A program made the translations under genes and the position numbers. The notes below the pieces were generated by a model. It searched no databases, was not told the origin of the DNA, and saw only the letters and a program-made list of their open reading frames with translations. From Cenarchaeum sp. (GTDB lineage Archaea > Thermoproteota > Nitrososphaeria > Nitrososphaerales > Nitrosopumilaceae), in the NCBI GenBank assembly GCA_965206845.1, contig OZ242221.1, forward strand, positions 1,280,001-1,344,000: 64,000 nt of DNA, read 5' to 3'. How positions within the stretch are numbered: the first letter of the stretch is position 1; the number at the start of each line of letters is the position of its first letter. This document shows, one piece after another, positions 44,865-51,549 of the stretch.

Positions 44865-46319
44865 TTAGTTTTGGTATTGGGCCAGCTTTGTGTTTGACTC
44901 GTCTAGGATCTTGTGTAGTGTGTCCCTCCAGACCTCAAATCCCTGGGGGGAGTCGGGGTAGTTGTAGTAGTGCTCAGTCAGCCTCCTGTTCTGGCTAGTG
45001 GTGAACCGAAGGCCGCCGGCAAGTCGCTTGTTTAGCGCTCCGCGGATTATCATTCCCAGCCTTCCCAGTGAGCTGAAGTCGGGGTGCTCGCCCTTTGAGA
45101 TCGCCTCCACGCTCAGGTTTCCAAGAAAGTGCTTCATGCCGTAGCTTAACTGCTCGTTGGAGAGCGTCTGTATGAGCCTGCGGAATATCTCAAGGCCTGC
45201 CGTCTTGTAACCGTACTCGTTGATGAACCGCTTGTTGTACCTCCACAGGCCGCTCTCTGTCACGTTGTTCTCCTGTATGGCCTCCACGACGCACTCGCCC
45301 ACTATGGTTCCCGCCACCAGCGCAGGGCCGATTCCCCCGGCGTCCAGCGGCTTTGGCATCCATGCCGAGTCACCCACCAGGATAAACCCGCCTGCGACCA
45401 TACAATCATTCTGCCTCCGGACCGAGACCTGAAAGTTTCCCACTGCGTTGTTGCTGTCCTCCGGATCCTCAGACACCCTGGGCCTCTTTATCGCGCGGTT
45501 CCTGTTTATGTACTCCTCGATGAGCGTGGATACGTTGTCCTTCCTTCCCAGCCTGGCGTTTCGCCTCTCTAGGAGCGTCTTCTCGACGCCGAGGCCGATG
45601 TTTACCTTGTCCTTTCCCTTGGGAAAGACCCAGCCATACCCTCCTGGGGCTATGTCCTGATCCAGGTGGATTATGCAGTAGTCGGGATCAAACTCGGAGA
45701 GATCGGCTTCCCCCTGCTCAAAGTACATGATCTTTCTGCCGGTGGACTCGACATCTTGGCGGTCCACCTTCCTCTCCATTCTGGTGGTGTTGGATATCTG
45801 GTTTCGCAGCATCGAGGTTACGCCGGTGGCGTCGATCACCACCTTTGCGGTTCTCTTGTATGGCTGTTTCTTGCTGTCTATGCCCCGGACTCCCACCACC
45901 TGGGAGTCGTCGTACAGCAGTCCGGTCAGGTTCACCTCATAATCAAAGTCGACTCCCATATTCAGCGTTCTCTCGTTCTGCTTCTCGGGAAGAAGCTGCC
46001 TGTTGAGCATGTATCCGTCGCCGTCAAATGGGATCGATGTCTTCCTGTCCGGAGAGAATGCCATGACGCCCTTGACCTTGTGCTCGATCTCCGGCTCGCT
46101 CCAGGACACGCCGATCCTGTCACTCATGTAGTCCACGGCCTCCTTGCTTACCGCGTCGCCGCAGATCCACCCGCTGATGCTCTTCCTTCCAGGCACGATG
46201 GCTGAGTTCCTGTCGATCACAAGAATCTTCAGTCCCTGCTTGGAGTATCTTGATACCGACTGGGCCGCCACGGTTCCGGCCAGCCCACCCCCTGCCACGA
46301 TGACGTCATAATCTGACAA
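44865..46319 (-). CDS. Geranylgeranyl reductase-like FAD oxidoreductase
   Basis: YDVIVAGGGLAG, ICGDAV, PGGYGWVFPKG, VGDSA...GGGI-like segment. Confidence 0.85.
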   Translation of the reverse strand: MSDYDVIVAGGGLAGTVAAQSVSRYSKQGLKILVIDRNSAIVPGRKSISGWICGDAVSKEAVDYMSDRIGVSWSEPEIEHKVKGVMAFSPDRKTSIPFDGDGYMLNRQLLPEKQNERTLNMGVDFDYEVNLTGLLYDDSQVVGVRGIDSKKQPYKRTAKVVIDATGVTSMLRNQISNTTRMERKVDRQDVESTGRKIMYFEQGEADLSEFDPDYCIIHLDQDIAPGGYGWVFPKGKDKVNIGLGVEKTLLERRNARLGRKDNVSTLIEEYINRNRAIKRPRVSEDPEDSNNAVGNFQVSVRRQNDCMVAGGFILVGDSAWMPKPLDAGGIGPALVAGTIVGECVVEAIQENNVTESGLWRYNKRFINEYGYKTAGLEIFRRLIQTLSNEQLSYGMKHFLGNLSVEAISKGEHPDFSSLGRLGMIIRGALNKRLAGGLRFTTSQNRRLTEHYYNYPDSPQGFEVWRDTLHKILDESNTKLAQYQN

Positions 46320-46954
46320 CAAGATACTCCGCAGCTCATAGATATTTAAAATAATGCAGTCGCGAACTTTGTTTCCCAATTTCGATAAACGCATCTGAGT
46401 TGCCACAAAGAGCACGATTCTCGTGTGACTTGACGCTGTTTACGGACTAAATTAATCGTAAAAGTGCGAAATGTTTGGATTGGGAAACAAAGTTCAGTCG
46501 CGGCGTGAGTGGGATCGCCGGGCCGGACGTGGGGACTTGTCCGGGCGTATGGGCCCGTGCCGGATTGAAGACGGATACGGCCCCGTGTATTTCTAGCGAG
46601 CTGGTTCCGGCGCTGCTGTTGTCTGCGGGCCGATCCGCGCCAGCGGCTCGTATTTTAAACTGGGTCGGATCGTCGCGGGGTCTTCAACGCTTGCGCTCAG
46701 ACTGGAACGGCTGTTATTTCCTCATTCCCGGTTATGCTTGGGGGTTCGTTCTATTTATTGCTGTGTTTGCGGCTGCGTCCTACAGGCATAACCACCTATG
46801 TTAAAACATCCGGTCATAGTCAAGCGTTGATTCCGTCTGACTTCTGATCCACGCCTAGGTTACGCGCGTACAACTTTAAAGCTATCGCTAGGAATTGGAT
46901 TGCAGAAAATGTACTGGTGCGGGCCAGCCTAGCTGGCCAGTCCGCCCCGTGCAC

Positions 46955-48034
46955 CTACTGCAGAATCTTCTTCATCCGTTTCAGCTTTCTGGCATATCTG
47001 CTTGCGTCATGGGGCTCGTATGGTTCCTTGGCAGTCAGCATCTTCCAGATGATCCTCACCATCTTGTTTGCCACGTGTGTTATGGCAATCGGGTGGTTGC
47101 CACCGTGCCTTGTCTTGGCATTTTGATAGAACCACTTTAGTCTGTCATCATGGCGCACCGCCACGTTGGCTGCTTGGATCATTATCCAGTTTACCCTTCG
47201 GTTTGACGCCTTTTTCATGCGGCCGTGGTGCGTCACGTTGCCGGACTGGCAGACTCGCGGACACATCCCGGTCCATGAGACCAGTCTGTCTGCGGTCTTG
47301 AACCTGGTGATGTCGCCAACCTCAGATACCAGCAGCATCGCGGCAAACGCCTCTATGCCAGTCATGCTCATCAGCAGTTTCGCATCCTCGTTGACTGCGG
47401 CCTGCCTGTCTATCTCTGCCTCGATGCCAGATATCTCCTCTGTGGCATGTGCAATCCTTTTGACGCAGTTTTGCAGGATCATGTTGTCATTTGGTTTCTT
47501 AAGGCGTATCTGCGAAAGCAGCCTGATGGCCTTTTTGCTGTGCATCCTTGAGACATCTGGCATCACGTCGTACTTGTCAAGCAAGCCGTGCGTGTAGTTG
47601 ATCAGGGCAGTCCTTGCCTGAACCATGCTTATCCTGTACCTGAGCAGTTCCCTGACATCGCGCAAATCCGATGGTGCCACGTAGCATTCTGGGATAATCC
47701 CCACGCGCAGCGCGTTTGCAATCTTTTGCGCGTCGATGGGATCCGTCTTGACATCGGTGTCCGATATTATCTTCATCTTGTACGTGTTGGCAAGCTTTAC
47801 CGGTATCCCGCACCCCTCGAAGGCCTCAAACGTCTTGAGCCACATGTTTCCAGTCGACTCGCACGCGGCCCTGCACCGTCCCTTCCCGCTGTATTCTTTT
47901 TTCATCCTGCGTGCAAACTCTTTTGCGTCTTCCAGCGTGTTCACGTATGATGTCCTCTCCAGCACGTTTCCCTTGCCGTCCACTACGCATACCATGCATT
48001 TTCCCTTACCAATGTCTATTCCTATGTTTCTCAT
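46955..48034 (-). CDS. IS110-family DEDD recombinase/transposase, apparently intact
   Basis: GIDIGK, CESTG, KTDPIDA (DEDD), C-terminal P...QSG serine; SD GGAGGTGA upstream of ATG 48034. Confidence 0.95.
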   Translation of the reverse strand: MRNIGIDIGKGKCMVCVVDGKGNVLERTSYVNTLEDAKEFARRMKKEYSGKGRCRAACESTGNMWLKTFEAFEGCGIPVKLANTYKMKIISDTDVKTDPIDAQKIANALRVGIIPECYVAPSDLRDVRELLRYRISMVQARTALINYTHGLLDKYDVMPDVSRMHSKKAIRLLSQIRLKKPNDNMILQNCVKRIAHATEEISGIEAEIDRQAAVNEDAKLLMSMTGIEAFAAMLLVSEVGDITRFKTADRLVSWTGMCPRVCQSGNVTHHGRMKKASNRRVNWIMIQAANVAVRHDDRLKWFYQNAKTRHGGNHPIAITHVANKMVRIIWKMLTAKEPYEPHDASRYARKLKRMKKILQ

Positions 48035-48067
48035 CCTTTCTCTCACCTCCTTGCGGATTGTTTTTGA

Positions 48068-48181
48068 TGGATCGGAAGCTGCAATCACCTATCAGTGCGC
48101 GAAGCACAGGAACACAGCAGCTCGGATTGCCCCATTCAAATGAAAGTGCGCGGAGCACATGGTTATCAAGGGGTCGATCCA
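48068..48181 (-). ncRNA. Putative bridge RNA (target-binding and donor-binding loops)
   Basis: Outer stem GGATCG/CGATCC; two stem-internal loop-hairpin modules capped by GTGC-T(C/T)CGC-GCAC; loop strands match the junction sequences. Confidence 0.8.
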
Positions 48182-48404
48182 CTGCCACGACTACGACGAG
48201 GATGTTTTTCCAAATGAATCAAATCTACAGAACCGATTCCAGTTCATATGTGCTTGTAGGACACAGTTTGTGTTTGCAGGGCGCGCATGCGGCAGGCTTC
48301 TGCTCCATTCGGGCGCAGGTCTGCGCACCCGGTCACGCCTTCGCGCTTGGCGCTACGGCAGACGATTCCTGCGTTGCTTACGTGCCCGGACTGAAGGTTC
48401 GGGC

Positions 48405-51400
48405 CTACACGGCTTTTGCGTCGCATATGCTCCGATAGTCGCACCAGTTGCAGACGCCGTAGCTGGGAGTGGGCTCAAAGTTCTCACTGAGAATCTGTGC
48501 GATCATCTCCTCGATGGACTCCATGGACGCATCGACCGACCCTTTGGTGACCGCATACTCGACAACCTTGCCTCTCTCAAGATAGAACAGCGACGCCTTT
48601 GCTGGCAGCTCGCCCTTGAGCTTCTCGACTGCCTTTGCGTAGATGTTCAGCTGCGGATCCGCCGCCGCCTTTGGCCTGCTCAATACGCTCTTTCCGGATT
48701 TAAAGTCCACCACCTCGTATCTGCCGCCGGGGTTTCTCTCCAACCTGTCAATCCTTCCGTTGAACCTGACGTCGCCAATCAGTATGCTGAAGGGAATCTC
48801 GGTGTCCACCAGCTCGTTTTCCGAGCGTTCCTCCCACTCCAGATATGCCCGTATCATGGCGTCTGCCCGATCCGTGATCCTCTTCTCACCGGCCCTGCTC
48901 TGAATGCCCGGGCTCCACATCTTTGTGAACTTCTTCATGCTGTCCTCTGGTGTGACGCCTCGGCCCTGCGATCTCGCCTTTGCGGCCTCCTCGACCACTG
49001 CATGGATCACCCTGCCAAGATTGGCAGGGATGCTTGGCGGGCGGGGGACCCGGTCGATCTTCTCGAACTTGAATTGTAGCGGACACTTCTCATACGCCTT
49101 GATGCCGCTGGCAGACAGGGTCAGCTCATCGTGGTTGAACAGCGGCCGGCTCATGTCTGCCACCTCCGCAGACAGGTCCACGTCACCCATGTCGACATCT
49201 AGTATGCTCCGGGGGTCAAAGCCGTCAAGGTTGCCGAACCGCTCGTAGTGCTGGATGCGCGACAGCTCGACGATCTTGTGGATCGCAGTCTTGAGACTCG
49301 ATTGGCCAATCGCTGTATATGCCTGCTTCTGCTTGTCTGACTTTGTGCGCTCTACCCGGCTTACGGGCTGTGCATCAAAGTCCTCCGACTCGTCAAAGTC
49401 AGTTACCTCGATCAGCGGGTTTCTCCTGTAGTCCAGCTCGACTAGGAACCGGGACGGGTCCGTGTCCCTGACGTTCTCGCCGTACCGTATTGGCTGGATC
49501 ATGTACAGTCTCTTCATGGCCCTGGTTATGGCCACGTAGAACAGCCTGCGCTCTTCCGCGTCGTGCATCTCTTTTGTGTCCTCCCTCCTGTTGTCTCCCT
49601 GCAGCAGCCCCAGGGGAATGCGGAACGGTTTCTCCCGATACCTGAGGGGAAACCGGTTCTTGGCCATGTCAGTGACAAAGACGACGGGAAACTCCTTTCC
49701 CTTGCTCTTGTGCATGGTCAGGACGTTGACGGCATCAGCAGGCGCGGCATCCTCCAGCTCGACACTCCACCCGTCCAGTGCCGAGACGGACTCGAGAAAG
49801 CCGCCAAGCGAGCGATCAGCAAAGATCTCATCGTACTCTTCTGCGATCCTGTGGATCTTGCTCAGCAGCAGGGCGCTTGTCTTGTCCTGGTGGCCTGACT
49901 GCAGCGCCCGCTTGTACAGCCCTGACTGCTTCATCATTACATGGTACACGAGATCGCTTACGGAAGAGCCAGCCGCCAGCCTGATTATGTCCTCAAGGAG
50001 GGCCACAAGCTCTGAGATCTCCTGCTTTTGTGTGATCGCGAGCTTGTCACAATCCCTTACCGTCTCCCAGACAAGGTCTCGGGACCCGTCTCCTGCACCC
50101 CTCGCCTCCTTGTGCGCCTGGCTCATCAGCACCATGATGTTCCTCTCTGTGATACCACGTTTCCTTAGCAGATCAAATATCATCATTCCGGCAGTCCCCT
50201 GGGAATGCGCAATTTTGAGGTAAGCCACGAGCTCGGCGACGGCCGGGTTGCGGCGAATGTCCGGCTCCATCTCGACGGAGGCAGGTATCCCAAAGGACTC
50301 CAGAGCCTGGGCGAACCTGCGACCCTCTTCCTTGCGCCTTGACAGGATTGCTATGTCCCGATAGCGCATGCCATCCTTGATCATCTGGCGTATGGTCTGG
50401 ACGACAAACTCCGTCTGCCCGTTCCCGGTCGGCGTGCATACCACGGCTATCTTGTCCCCATCCGGGTTCGGGTGCTGACACCCCTCTGTGTCCCGCCCGA
50501 GAACTTGGTTTGCGATGCGTATGATGTTTCCGGTGCTGCGGTAGTTTTTTACGAGTCTCACCTCCTTCAGTTCGGGATACGTCTTCTTGTACTCCTGGAA
50601 TATCCCGGAGTGCGATCCCTGAAACCCCATGATGGACTGGTCCTCGTCTCCCACCACGCCGATGTTCCTGTGGCTGGCAAGGAGCTTGGCCAGCTCCAGC
50701 TGCGCATAGTTGTTGTCCTGGAACTCGTCGATCATGACATACCGGTATCTCTCCTGGTACTTGGCCAGCAGGGCCGCATTCCCTCTGAGTACCTCGACTG
50801 TCTTGGACACCATGTCGCCAAAGTCGACTAGGTTCCTCTCGGTTCTGTACTCCTCGTAGGCCCGGTACATCTTGCCAAGCTCGCCGAGCTTGTGGATGAG
50901 CTCCGGGTTCTGCGGCTCTGGGGAGCCCAGCTGCTCGTCGACGTACCCCTGCAGTCTCTGCGGCGAGATCATCTCATCCTTGAGGCTTCTCACTGCCTCG
51001 AGCATTCCGGCGTAGATCTCCCTCGTGCTCCCTCCGATGTCTACGTACTCTGGGTTAAAGCCAAACCTGTCAGTGTTCCTGAGGCACCAGATCAGCTGCG
51101 CCCACTTCTCGAAGATTCTGGTCTCCCGGCCCACCCCGGACTCGGCAAGGTTCTCCAGCAGAATCTCCCTTGCAAACGCATGAAACGTGCTGACCTTTAC
51201 ATCGAGCTTGCCGCGCTCCTCCAGCCTCTCCTGCATCTCGCCTGTGGCCTTGTTGGTAAATGTGAGGCAGAGAATGGACGACTGCGCAACGCCAGCCTCT
51301 ATCAGGCTGAGTGCCCTGCTGACGATCACGCGGGTCTTGCCGCTTCCGGGGCCTGCGATGATCATCAGCGGCCCCTGTCTGTGGTCTGCTGCCTGCTGCT

Positions 51401-51425
51401 GCTCTGGGTTCAGGCCGTCACTCAA
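48405..51425 (-). CDS. UvrD/PcrA-like helicase fused to a C-terminal PD-(D/E)xK nuclease with four Cys
   Basis: AGPGSGKT, DEFQD, GDEDQSI, NYRS, TMHKSKGKEF, RRLFYVAITRA; CPLQF...GRIDRL...VVDFKSG...QLNIY...CNWCDYRSIC. Confidence 0.9.
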   Translation of the reverse strand: MSDGLNPEQQQAADHRQGPLMIIAGPGSGKTRVIVSRALSLIEAGVAQSSILCLTFTNKATGEMQERLEERGKLDVKVSTFHAFAREILLENLAESGVGRETRIFEKWAQLIWCLRNTDRFGFNPEYVDIGGSTREIYAGMLEAVRSLKDEMISPQRLQGYVDEQLGSPEPQNPELIHKLGELGKMYRAYEEYRTERNLVDFGDMVSKTVEVLRGNAALLAKYQERYRYVMIDEFQDNNYAQLELAKLLASHRNIGVVGDEDQSIMGFQGSHSGIFQEYKKTYPELKEVRLVKNYRSTGNIIRIANQVLGRDTEGCQHPNPDGDKIAVVCTPTGNGQTEFVVQTIRQMIKDGMRYRDIAILSRRKEEGRRFAQALESFGIPASVEMEPDIRRNPAVAELVAYLKIAHSQGTAGMMIFDLLRKRGITERNIMVLMSQAHKEARGAGDGSRDLVWETVRDCDKLAITQKQEISELVALLEDIIRLAAGSSVSDLVYHVMMKQSGLYKRALQSGHQDKTSALLLSKIHRIAEEYDEIFADRSLGGFLESVSALDGWSVELEDAAPADAVNVLTMHKSKGKEFPVVFVTDMAKNRFPLRYREKPFRIPLGLLQGDNRREDTKEMHDAEERRLFYVAITRAMKRLYMIQPIRYGENVRDTDPSRFLVELDYRRNPLIEVTDFDESEDFDAQPVSRVERTKSDKQKQAYTAIGQSSLKTAIHKIVELSRIQHYERFGNLDGFDPRSILDVDMGDVDLSAEVADMSRPLFNHDELTLSASGIKAYEKCPLQFKFEKIDRVPRPPSIPANLGRVIHAVVEEAAKARSQGRGVTPEDSMKKFTKMWSPGIQSRAGEKRITDRADAMIRAYLEWEERSENELVDTEIPFSILIGDVRFNGRIDRLERNPGGRYEVVDFKSGKSVLSRPKAAADPQLNIYAKAVEKLKGELPAKASLFYLERGKVVEYAVTKGSVDASMESIEEMIAQILSENFEPTPSYGVCNWCDYRSICDAKAV

Positions 51426-51549
51426 CGCATGCCGCCTCCGCATCCCTGCATGTGCTGGTACCTGCGCCCGAGACACGATTCCATGCCGTGGTGCCGCATG
51501 CACGGTGCACGCCTGCCGCCCATTTGAGTCCTCCCACATCCACACCGCA

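Follow-up and report, generated by a model that had tools for sequence, protein, structure and literature searches.

The question raised by this locus is whether a short RNA that can be folded upstream of an IS110-family recombinase gene is a bridge RNA, that is, whether its loops can be read onto the target and the donor of the very element that encodes it. We consider, with a probability of about 0.88, that positions 46793-48212 of the minus strand in the window (the whole stretch of 64,000 nucleotides that was analysed) are a Nitrosopumilaceae IS110-family element consisting of a DEDD/Ser recombinase and an upstream 114-nt two-loop bridge RNA. Direct observations cover the sequence and the fold of this RNA, its conservation, and the way in which each of the four guide strands covaries with its DNA partner. 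The RNA would presumably be made and bound by the recombinase, and the chemistry would presumably be that of IS621.

In the mechanism that we propose, module 1 of the RNA would be the target-binding loop, whose 3′ strand (UUCAUU-UG), having the sense of the left flank and core, would pair with the bottom strand. Module 2 would be the donor-binding loop, reading the joined ends of the excised element: the right end would be matched by AUAGG-UG in its 3′ strand, and the canonical left end, AACACA, by UGUGUU in its 5′ strand. Recombination would take place at a TG dinucleotide shared by target and donor, and the natural target of the copy in the window (copy A) would be one site inside an ~80-bp MITE-like repeat. 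The strings and coordinates on which the original prediction was built are all present in the DNA, and are collected with the other features in Table 1.

Table 1. Features of copy A and its surroundings in the window, with the roles of the RNA and its loop strands as proposed here.
Feature	Position	Strand	Remarks
IS110-family element, copy A	46793..48212	-	span with both copies of the TG core; the element with one core is 1418 bp
Right end	46793..46811	-	subterminal inverted repeat GGATGTTTTAAC (46800-46811), then ATAGG, core TG (46793-46794)
Recombinase gene, 359 aa	46955..48034	-	ATG at 48034, stop 46957-46955
GGAGGTGA motif	48043-48050		before the recombinase start codon
Putative bridge RNA core, 114 nt	48068..48181	-	outer stem 48175-48181 with 48068-48074; encloses the target-binding and donor-binding modules
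Loop 2, 3′ strand UGAUAGGUGAUU	48083..48094	-	putative left-donor guide; AUAGGUG equals the last 7 right-end bases including the core
Loop 2, 5′ strand UGUGUUCCU	48108..48116	-	putative right-donor guide; fits the canonical left end AACACA
Loop 1, 3′ strand UUUCAUUUGAAU	48134..48145	-	putative left-target guide; TTCATTTG has the same sense as left flank plus core
Loop 1, 5′ strand UUGAUAACCAU	48159..48169	-	putative right-target guide; complement TGGTTAT equals core plus right flank
Left end, copy A	48200..48212	-	core TG (48211-48212), inverted repeat GAAAAACATCC directly after
Left arm of the target repeat	48213..48268	-	left target ...GATTCATT at 48213-48220
Right arm of the target repeat	46771..46792	-	right target GTTATG at 46787-46792
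9-bp direct repeat GCAAACACA			around the whole target repeat of copy A
Target of copy A, joined			...GATTCATT-TG-GTTATGCC...
Donor junction, copy-A type			...CATAGG-TG-GAAAAAC...
Donor junction, copy-C type			...CATAGG-TG-AACACATGG...
ATAACCA	48160-48166	-	
TTCATTTG	48137-48144	-	
ATAGGTG	48086-48092	-	
ATAACCA	46788-46794	+	
CAAATGAA	48211-48218	+	
CACCTAT	46793-46799	+	
TTCC	48208-48211	+	

The archaeal origin that had been predicted for the DNA holds for the host: archaeal SSU and LSU rRNA models score best in its genome (G000, one contig of 1.65 Mb), and its nearest named relatives are Nitrosopumilus MAGs. This genome carries copies A, B, C and D of the element together with two remnants of more distant relatives, one interrupted by another IS (E443) and one reduced to the RNA (F678). 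The borders of copy A were obtained from copies B (98% identical) and C (92%), from the deletion derivative D, which lacks the RNA and the first 54 codons, and from an empty target repeat. In every related locus with enough sequence the element starts with TG followed, some 38 nt ahead of the RNA, by a conserved box (AAYRCATG or a variant of it), and loci with enough sequence at the other side end in ...TTAAC-ATAG(G/A)-TG.

The protein has the domains of an IS110-family recombinase, with PF01548 (DEDD_Tnp_IS110) at E = 4.5e-24 and 85.4 bits and PF02371 (Transposase_20) at E = 1.4e-23 and 83.5 bits. It aligns weakly in phmmer with IS621 (8wt6, E = 3.7e-6) and ISCro4 (9t56, E = 1.3e-6), and in these alignments GIDIG, CESTG, KTDPIDA and QSGN of the query stand opposite the IS621 catalytic motifs. 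The catalytic residues given for IS621 by Hiraizumi et al. 2024 (PMC11208158), D11, E60, D102, D105 and S241-G242, have their counterparts in D7, E59, D98, D101 and S264-G265, which bears out the proposal of an intact recombinase of the DEDD plus Ser type. Matches to the protein at E <= 1e-40 were found in 49 of 401 genomes sampled from the class, a tally that includes the unpublished genome G282; all other results are given without that genome. Plasmid matches of the recombinase mostly bear just the product name 'IS110 family transposase', which makes no separation between the IS110 and IS1111 groups.

The 114 nt fold as had been described, into an outer stem that encloses two modules, each of a stem, an internal loop and a hairpin. 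The minimum free energy of -37.2 kcal/mol (z = -1.86) was reached by 11 of 200 shuffled sequences, and a longer stretch of 191 nt gave z = +1.03. The 7- and 8-mers of the guides occur 9, 3 and 6 times in the 64-kb window, with about 8, 2 and 8 occurrences expected. Since the fold is marginal against shuffles and the k-mers are not rare, the single sequence is suggestive and not conclusive.

At this level the RNA could also be read as a mere 5′ leader of the recombinase mRNA, acting in the control of translation or stability, with matches to the flanks that are coincidental or that reflect a site preference set by the protein. Its position, 34 nt upstream of the start codon on the same strand and just before the GGAGGTGA motif, suits such a leader, as does a fold that is not strongly better than its shuffles. 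The behaviour of the unpaired loop strands in related loci, described below, speaks against it.

Conservation of the RNA was followed with a covariance model built from five RNAs of the host genome. The model found the RNA upstream of the gene and on the gene strand in 25 of 29 loci of relatives; a broader model, R2, added a 26th locus, and of the three still without a match, two lie on contigs that break off within the gene. Among the matches listed for the two models, none lay downstream of the gene. In the 25-row alignment, which was fitted to the model and so somewhat favours the structure, the paired fraction of cells is 95.9% and both partners have changed in 20 of 26 pairs; 0 of 500 shuffles reached this level, and controls with slid partners gave 27.6-50.5% paired. 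A conserved G-U pair (17 of 25 rows) fits the gene strand only. A search of positions 46000-49000 with Rfam release 15 at E up to 10 returned no family, only two chance matches to mir-2518 and to ssnA (a 13-nt hairpin).

Outside the close relatives, model R2 gave matches from clear to weak that we take as leads only. In the right place and on the right strand they comprise a relative on an Agrobacterium Ti plasmid (E = 1.1e-5), a distant Nitrosopumilus relative (E = 0.0026) and, in haloarchaea, Halanaeroarchaeum (E = 0.0094), Halorubrum (0.27) and Halobellus (0.91); two further haloarchaeal relatives had no match to R2, and in haloarchaeal relatives the matches to model R1 were all weak. Because of the match in the Agrobacterium plasmid relative, the architecture does not appear to be restricted to archaea, and the idea of an archaeal system holds for the host but not for the architecture.

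The guides were compared with the DNA of their own locus and with that of the other loci in 20,000 permutations, the loci coming from related genomes of one class and being treated as independent. Placement of the junctions made no use of loop 1: the left one was set by the left-end box and the right one by the strand of loop 2. The six bases before UG in the 3′ strand of loop 1 agree with their own left flank at an average of 4.67 of 6 positions, as compared with 1.68 for the flanks of other loci (27 loci; 0 of 20,000 permutations as high), and the complement of the 5′ strand agrees with its own right flank at 4.32 of 6 as compared with 1.64 (25 loci; 0 of 20,000). For loop 2, the complement of the 5′ strand agrees with the first six bases of its own left end at 4.67 versus 3.27 (27 loci; 0 of 20,000), and the 3′ strand is the exact right-end 7-mer in 25 of 28 loci, the rest being a cut contig and two truncated elements. 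This last strand varies together with the right end, as seen in ATGGATG, ACAGATG and ATGAGTG. The assignment of loop 1 to the target and loop 2 to the donor, as first proposed from one sequence, is supported by this covariation of own over other DNA across 25-27 loci.

Two bases outside these guides also covary. The AA that follows UG in the 3′ strand of loop 1 matches bases 1-2 of the left end in 44 of 48 cells (10 of 20,000 permutations as high), and by analogy resembles a handshake guide. For the two bases after UG of the loop-2 3′ strand, compared with the right flank, no handshake-like covariation was found (13 of 48, 10.7 expected; 4699 of 20,000).

Loops and sites have changed together even within single genomes. 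In the host genome there are four loop-1 3′ strands (that of copies A and B, that of copy C and those of E443 and F678), each of which matches its own left flank over 8-9 bases, and the four copies in a Nitrosopumilus MAG have two loop-1 variants, each matching its own left flanks. We regard these sister copies, as judged from their sequences, as natural reprogramming. The leader reading is hard to reconcile with such loci: not just the stems but the unpaired loop strands covary base for base with their own flanks and ends, and copies of one genome with different loop strands occupy correspondingly different sites. Given that the RNA loops change with the site, a preference set by the protein would not account for the matches, and we hold a mere leader to be very improbable.

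The agreement with the original prediction is incomplete on one side. Loop 1 of copy C fits on the left only, its right flank CGCCTACC sharing 0-1 of 6 positions with the expected GTTTAC. The right-flank match also fails in one copy of the Nitrosopumilus MAG (L047), and in total 3 of 25 loci score 0-1 of 6 at the right flank; by eye, two further loci fit when shifted, one by a single base and the other by three. According to a preprint, insertion by IS621 is possible when no more than half of the RNA is matched.

The same permutations were used for the arrangement found in IS621, in which the 5′ strand serves the left flank in loop 1 and the right end in loop 2, leaving the right flank and the left end to the 3′ strands. 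This geometry might be expected for an element of the same family with its RNA upstream of the gene, as in IS621. The direct tests were null: the 5′ strand of loop 1 agrees with the left flank at 3.04 for its own locus versus 2.92 for others (5328 of 20,000 permutations as high); for the right flank and the 3′ strand, taken as its complement, the values are 3.20 and 3.10 (5652 of 20,000). We give the IS621 geometry next to no weight. The order that holds in the present family, with the complement of the top strand first (5′), is opposite to that of IS621, in keeping with the reversed polarity that the single sequence had suggested.

The target of copy A was examined through the repeat in which it lies. 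Copies A, B and D are inserted at the identical position of an ~80-bp MITE-like repeat. This repeat, a miniature version of a 1.23-kb IS, carries terminal inverted repeats (GGCTGTGTCCTAC...), is flanked by 9-bp duplications and is present in the genome in five empty copies. An empty repeat at 262120-262199 of the genome reads ...GACTCATT-TG-GTTATGTC... (CTCATT-TG-GTTATG around the core), and the filled ones read ...GATTCATT-TG-[element]...CATAGG-TG-GTTATG.... The best guide matches among the repeats are exactly the three filled ones. Among elements of the IS1111 type, IS4321/IS5075 are reported to have as their target the terminal repeat region of another mobile element, as is the case here. 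Insertion at one position of multi-copy short repeats (REP or intergenic) is described for ISPpu9 and ISPpu10 of the IS110 family; the repeat differs in being, here, a MITE from a 1.23-kb IS of an archaeon.

Comparison of empty and filled repeats, together with copy C, shows that target and donor share TG in the orientation of the element (CA on the plus strand), and that insertion makes no target duplication beyond this core. The third base of the core is ambiguous in copy A by coincidence. At the right junction of copy C, TG is followed by C, which fixes the shared core as TG, and the CA core first read from the plus strand is confirmed by both the repeats and this junction. TG is present in both 3′ loop strands of 25 of 25 aligned RNAs; its count at the left junction is not an independent figure, as the motif that placed this junction itself required TG.

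One part of the original prediction that did not stand is the donor match on the left side. It had been noted that the other strand of loop 2 shares TTCC with the end of the element. Copies A, B and D are without the first 8 bases of the left end, AACACATG, which are present in copy C and have counterparts in the other 25 of 27 loci. In copy C and in 26 of 27 loci the loop-2 5′ strand, UGUGUU, has its pairing partner in AACACA, the six bases that open the canonical left end; in copy A this strand can pair only by UUCC with GGAA. The TTCC match is a by-product, the strand being built for the AACACA that copies A, B and D have lost. With these bases missing, the donor of copy A itself would offer no more than about 4 bp for recognition on one side.

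This raises the question of whether the truncated copies are still mobile. It may be that the RNA family is real and that copy A, with B and D, is a crippled relic no longer recognised as a donor, which was spread by MITE transposition, mobilised by the 1.23-kb parent IS, or by gene conversion between repeats. The loss of a left end that copy C and the other 25 of 27 loci keep is in line with such a relic; so are the 9-bp duplication of its own that flanks each filled repeat, as MITE transposition predicts, the parent IS being there in at least 10 copies, and the arms of A and D, which differ by eye at 2 positions only. The arms of A and B tell otherwise: they differ at 8 of 70 bases and the elements at 26 of 1420 (Fisher p = 1e-4), so that the arms are six times more divergent than the elements, which fits separate insertions and points to an independent entry of the shortened element into repeats that had diverged beforehand. 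The ORF and the RNA, moreover, are intact in copies A and B. Weighing these points, we think it unlikely, though not negligibly so, that the truncated copies are relics, and favour the reading that copies A, B and D, judging from the divergence of their surroundings, probably still moved after the 8-bp loss. Being truncated and apparently still mobile, they amount to a natural test of how much pairing the donor requires.

Contigs from two metagenome runs contain the joint 46791->48210, with a shorter side of 21-22 letters only. As these joints may stem from other empty copies of the repeat, they were not counted as excision. For copy C an empty site was sought in the sole other genome of the genus (G203), from which its flanks are absent, two short RNA-like pieces having matched; the reading frames across the joined flanks of copy C are just 70-159 codons long, which says nothing either way about a disrupted gene.

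The family shares features with both described types of IS110 elements. With IS621 (Durrant et al. 2024, PMC11208160; Hiraizumi et al. 2024, PMC11208158) it has in common a DEDD RuvC-like domain and a Tnp domain with a catalytic Ser. IS621 is also matched in the left-end RNA upstream of the gene, in a loop 1 for the target and a loop 2 for the donor, in the reading of both DNA strands by each loop around a shared 2-nt core, in one longer guide (8-9 nt) and one shorter (3-7 nt), and in two bases beside the target guide that match the donor, as handshake guides do. It differs from IS621 in a protein of weak similarity (phmmer E = 3.7e-6) and in a core of TG/CA where IS621 has CT. Elements of the IS621/IS110 group are described as having no subterminal inverted repeats or repeats of 2-3 bp, unlike the long ones found here, and RNAs of the IS110 family are given as 150-250 nt, as compared with the 114 nt closed by the outer stem in copy A.

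In other respects the family is like the IS1111 type as portrayed by Siddiquee et al. 2024 (PMC11187229), with which it shares the guide order and subterminal inverted repeats of at least 11 bp; its ends also extend asymmetrically beyond the repeats. The seekRNAs of that type carry the complement of the top strand 5′ of the match to the bottom strand, so that, within that account, the reversed polarity has a precedent (PMC11187229). The inverted repeats of IS1111-type elements are reported to be 11-13 bp long with extensions of 7 bp and 3 bp (PMC11187229). In our loci the best 11-nt window has 9-11 of 11 matches in 20 of 24, and in 9 of 24 the repeat is set 5 nt in from the left end and 3 nt in from the right, the left distance exceeding the right by 2 nt in 14 of 24; to arrive at the 7/3 extensions of IS1111 the TG core has to be assigned to the left end, and copy A with its shortened left end does not fit. 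The position of the RNA sets the family apart, being upstream here and usually downstream in the IS1111 type, where the long non-coding region and the RNA are reported downstream in almost all elements, with exceptions such as ISMtsp17 (PMC11187229). In the diverged ISHvo10 and ISAcp5 both non-coding ends are long (PMC11187229), as they are in copy A (about 180 and 160 bp).

Taken from these sequence features, the family would combine ends and guide order of the IS1111 type with an upstream RNA of the IS110 type. Seen from the opposite DNA strand, RNA and DNA would take up the IS621 geometry with a CA core, and what differs would be how the gene and the RNA are oriented with respect to it. Such a mix of IS1111-type order and ends with IS110-type RNA position links both subtypes, and bears on how the RNA moved between the ends of elements in evolution.

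A further idea goes beyond this: that the family is a distinct lineage, archaeal and bacterial, lying between the IS110 and IS1111 types, with the ends and guide order of the latter but a compact 114-nt RNA, closed by its outer stem, upstream of the gene; and that, as the spread of the 8-bp-truncated copies would imply, recombination can largely do without pairing between donor loop and left end. We offer it tentatively, and think it rather less likely than not. Were the lineage distinct, it would have a recombination module inverted relative to transcription in comparison with IS621. Were donor-loop pairing dispensable, the subterminal repeat or a one-sided match would suffice, giving a natural small system with relaxed donor requirements.

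The bridge RNA of copy A leaves the known mechanism unchanged. What it adds is a well-supported natural bridge-RNA system from ammonia-oxidising archaea, which is small (a 359-aa protein and a 114-nt RNA core) and in which natural reprogramming is visible in the host genome and in a second, related genome. Bridge RNAs have been mined at scale, a 2026 preprint giving 32,190 RNAs and 86 covariance models, and 662 archaeal IS110 recombinases are stated to be known (preprint); with bridge RNAs already mined by the tens of thousands, a specialist would find the present system useful and not surprising. Among the papers listed by our literature search none treats bridge RNAs of Nitrososphaeria; the family may already be catalogued, for instance in the supplementary tables of Durrant et al. 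or of the 2026 preprint.

As to expression, among sequencing runs recorded as RNA none contains the RNA stretch. Two runs guessed to be RNA, available as contigs that give neither ends nor strand, have contigs over 47963-48116 (depth 103) and 47975-48192 (depth 5.8), as compared with a depth of 2.4 for a contig internal to the ORF; we take the depth over the RNA region as a weak hint of expression. At a distance of 22-29 nt ahead of the outer stem of the RNA is the A-rich left repeat GAAAAACA, presumably, from the promoter geometry that we assume, at the place of an archaeal TATA box.

The IS110-family element in the window (copy A) interrupts a MITE-like repeat, roughly 80 bp long, whose terminal inverted repeats read GGCTGTGTCCTAC... 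and which is flanked by duplications of 9 bp; together the two occupy the gap between a pair of genes on the minus strand. To judge by eye from their translations, the gene at window 44865-46415 resembles a geranylgeranyl-reductase-type flavoprotein, and the one at 48405-51545 (1046 aa) looks like a UvrD/AddAB-type helicase-nuclease. The repeat shares its ends with a 1.23-kb IS carrying a 333-codon frame, of which the host genome holds at least 10 copies (e.g., 301689-302920 and 486867-488096).

The same genome contains degraded forms of the element and of its relatives. In copy D the left junction is intact, and the following ~354 bp, comprising the bridge RNA together with codons 1-54, are gone; this deletion joint (window 47846->48207) was also found in one contig of the metagenome run X6. 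Two remnants of related elements have bridge RNAs of their own and still match their left flanks; in that at L005 a different element has inserted and cuts the gene off behind codon 188, and of that at L007 the RNA alone is left. A distant second IS110-family gene, 30% identical, was also observed, lying ~4 kb from copy C, the 92% copy of the element.

Coordinates of the element derivatives, related sequences and target repeat
Feature	Sequence	Positions	Locus
Copy D, deletion derivative	host genome	1266743-1267885	L004/L006
Remnant with own bridge RNA	host genome	443330-444080	L005
Remnant with own bridge RNA	host genome	678700-678860	L007
Second IS110-family gene	host genome	96585-97646	
MITE-like repeat arms around copy A	window	46771-46792; 48213-48268	
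Further MITE-like repeats	host genome	262120-262199; 863970-864048; 1096125-1096203; 1505534-1505612; 1497510-1497583	

Many metagenome contigs from runs X6 and X8 part from the window exactly inside the target-binding module of the bridge RNA (window 48109-48192), which suggests either that target-loop variants exist in the population or that assemblies break at the two near-identical hairpin caps.

A bacterial relative is found on the Agrobacterium genomosp. 6 plasmid pTi_CFBP1873 (NZ_KY000026.1; locus L057), where an IS110-family gene, 28% identical, is directly preceded by the same two-module RNA enclosed in an outer stem (927-1039; broader covariance model R2, 29 bits, E = 1.1e-5). The insertion sites of two further relatives were also noted: that at locus L031 (~1270-1320) is inserted into a microsatellite, (TGC)n(TGT)n, with a repeat unit identical to the element's target guide (TTGTTGTTG), and beside that at locus L019 (~1290-1320) the 15-bp left target is duplicated in tandem.
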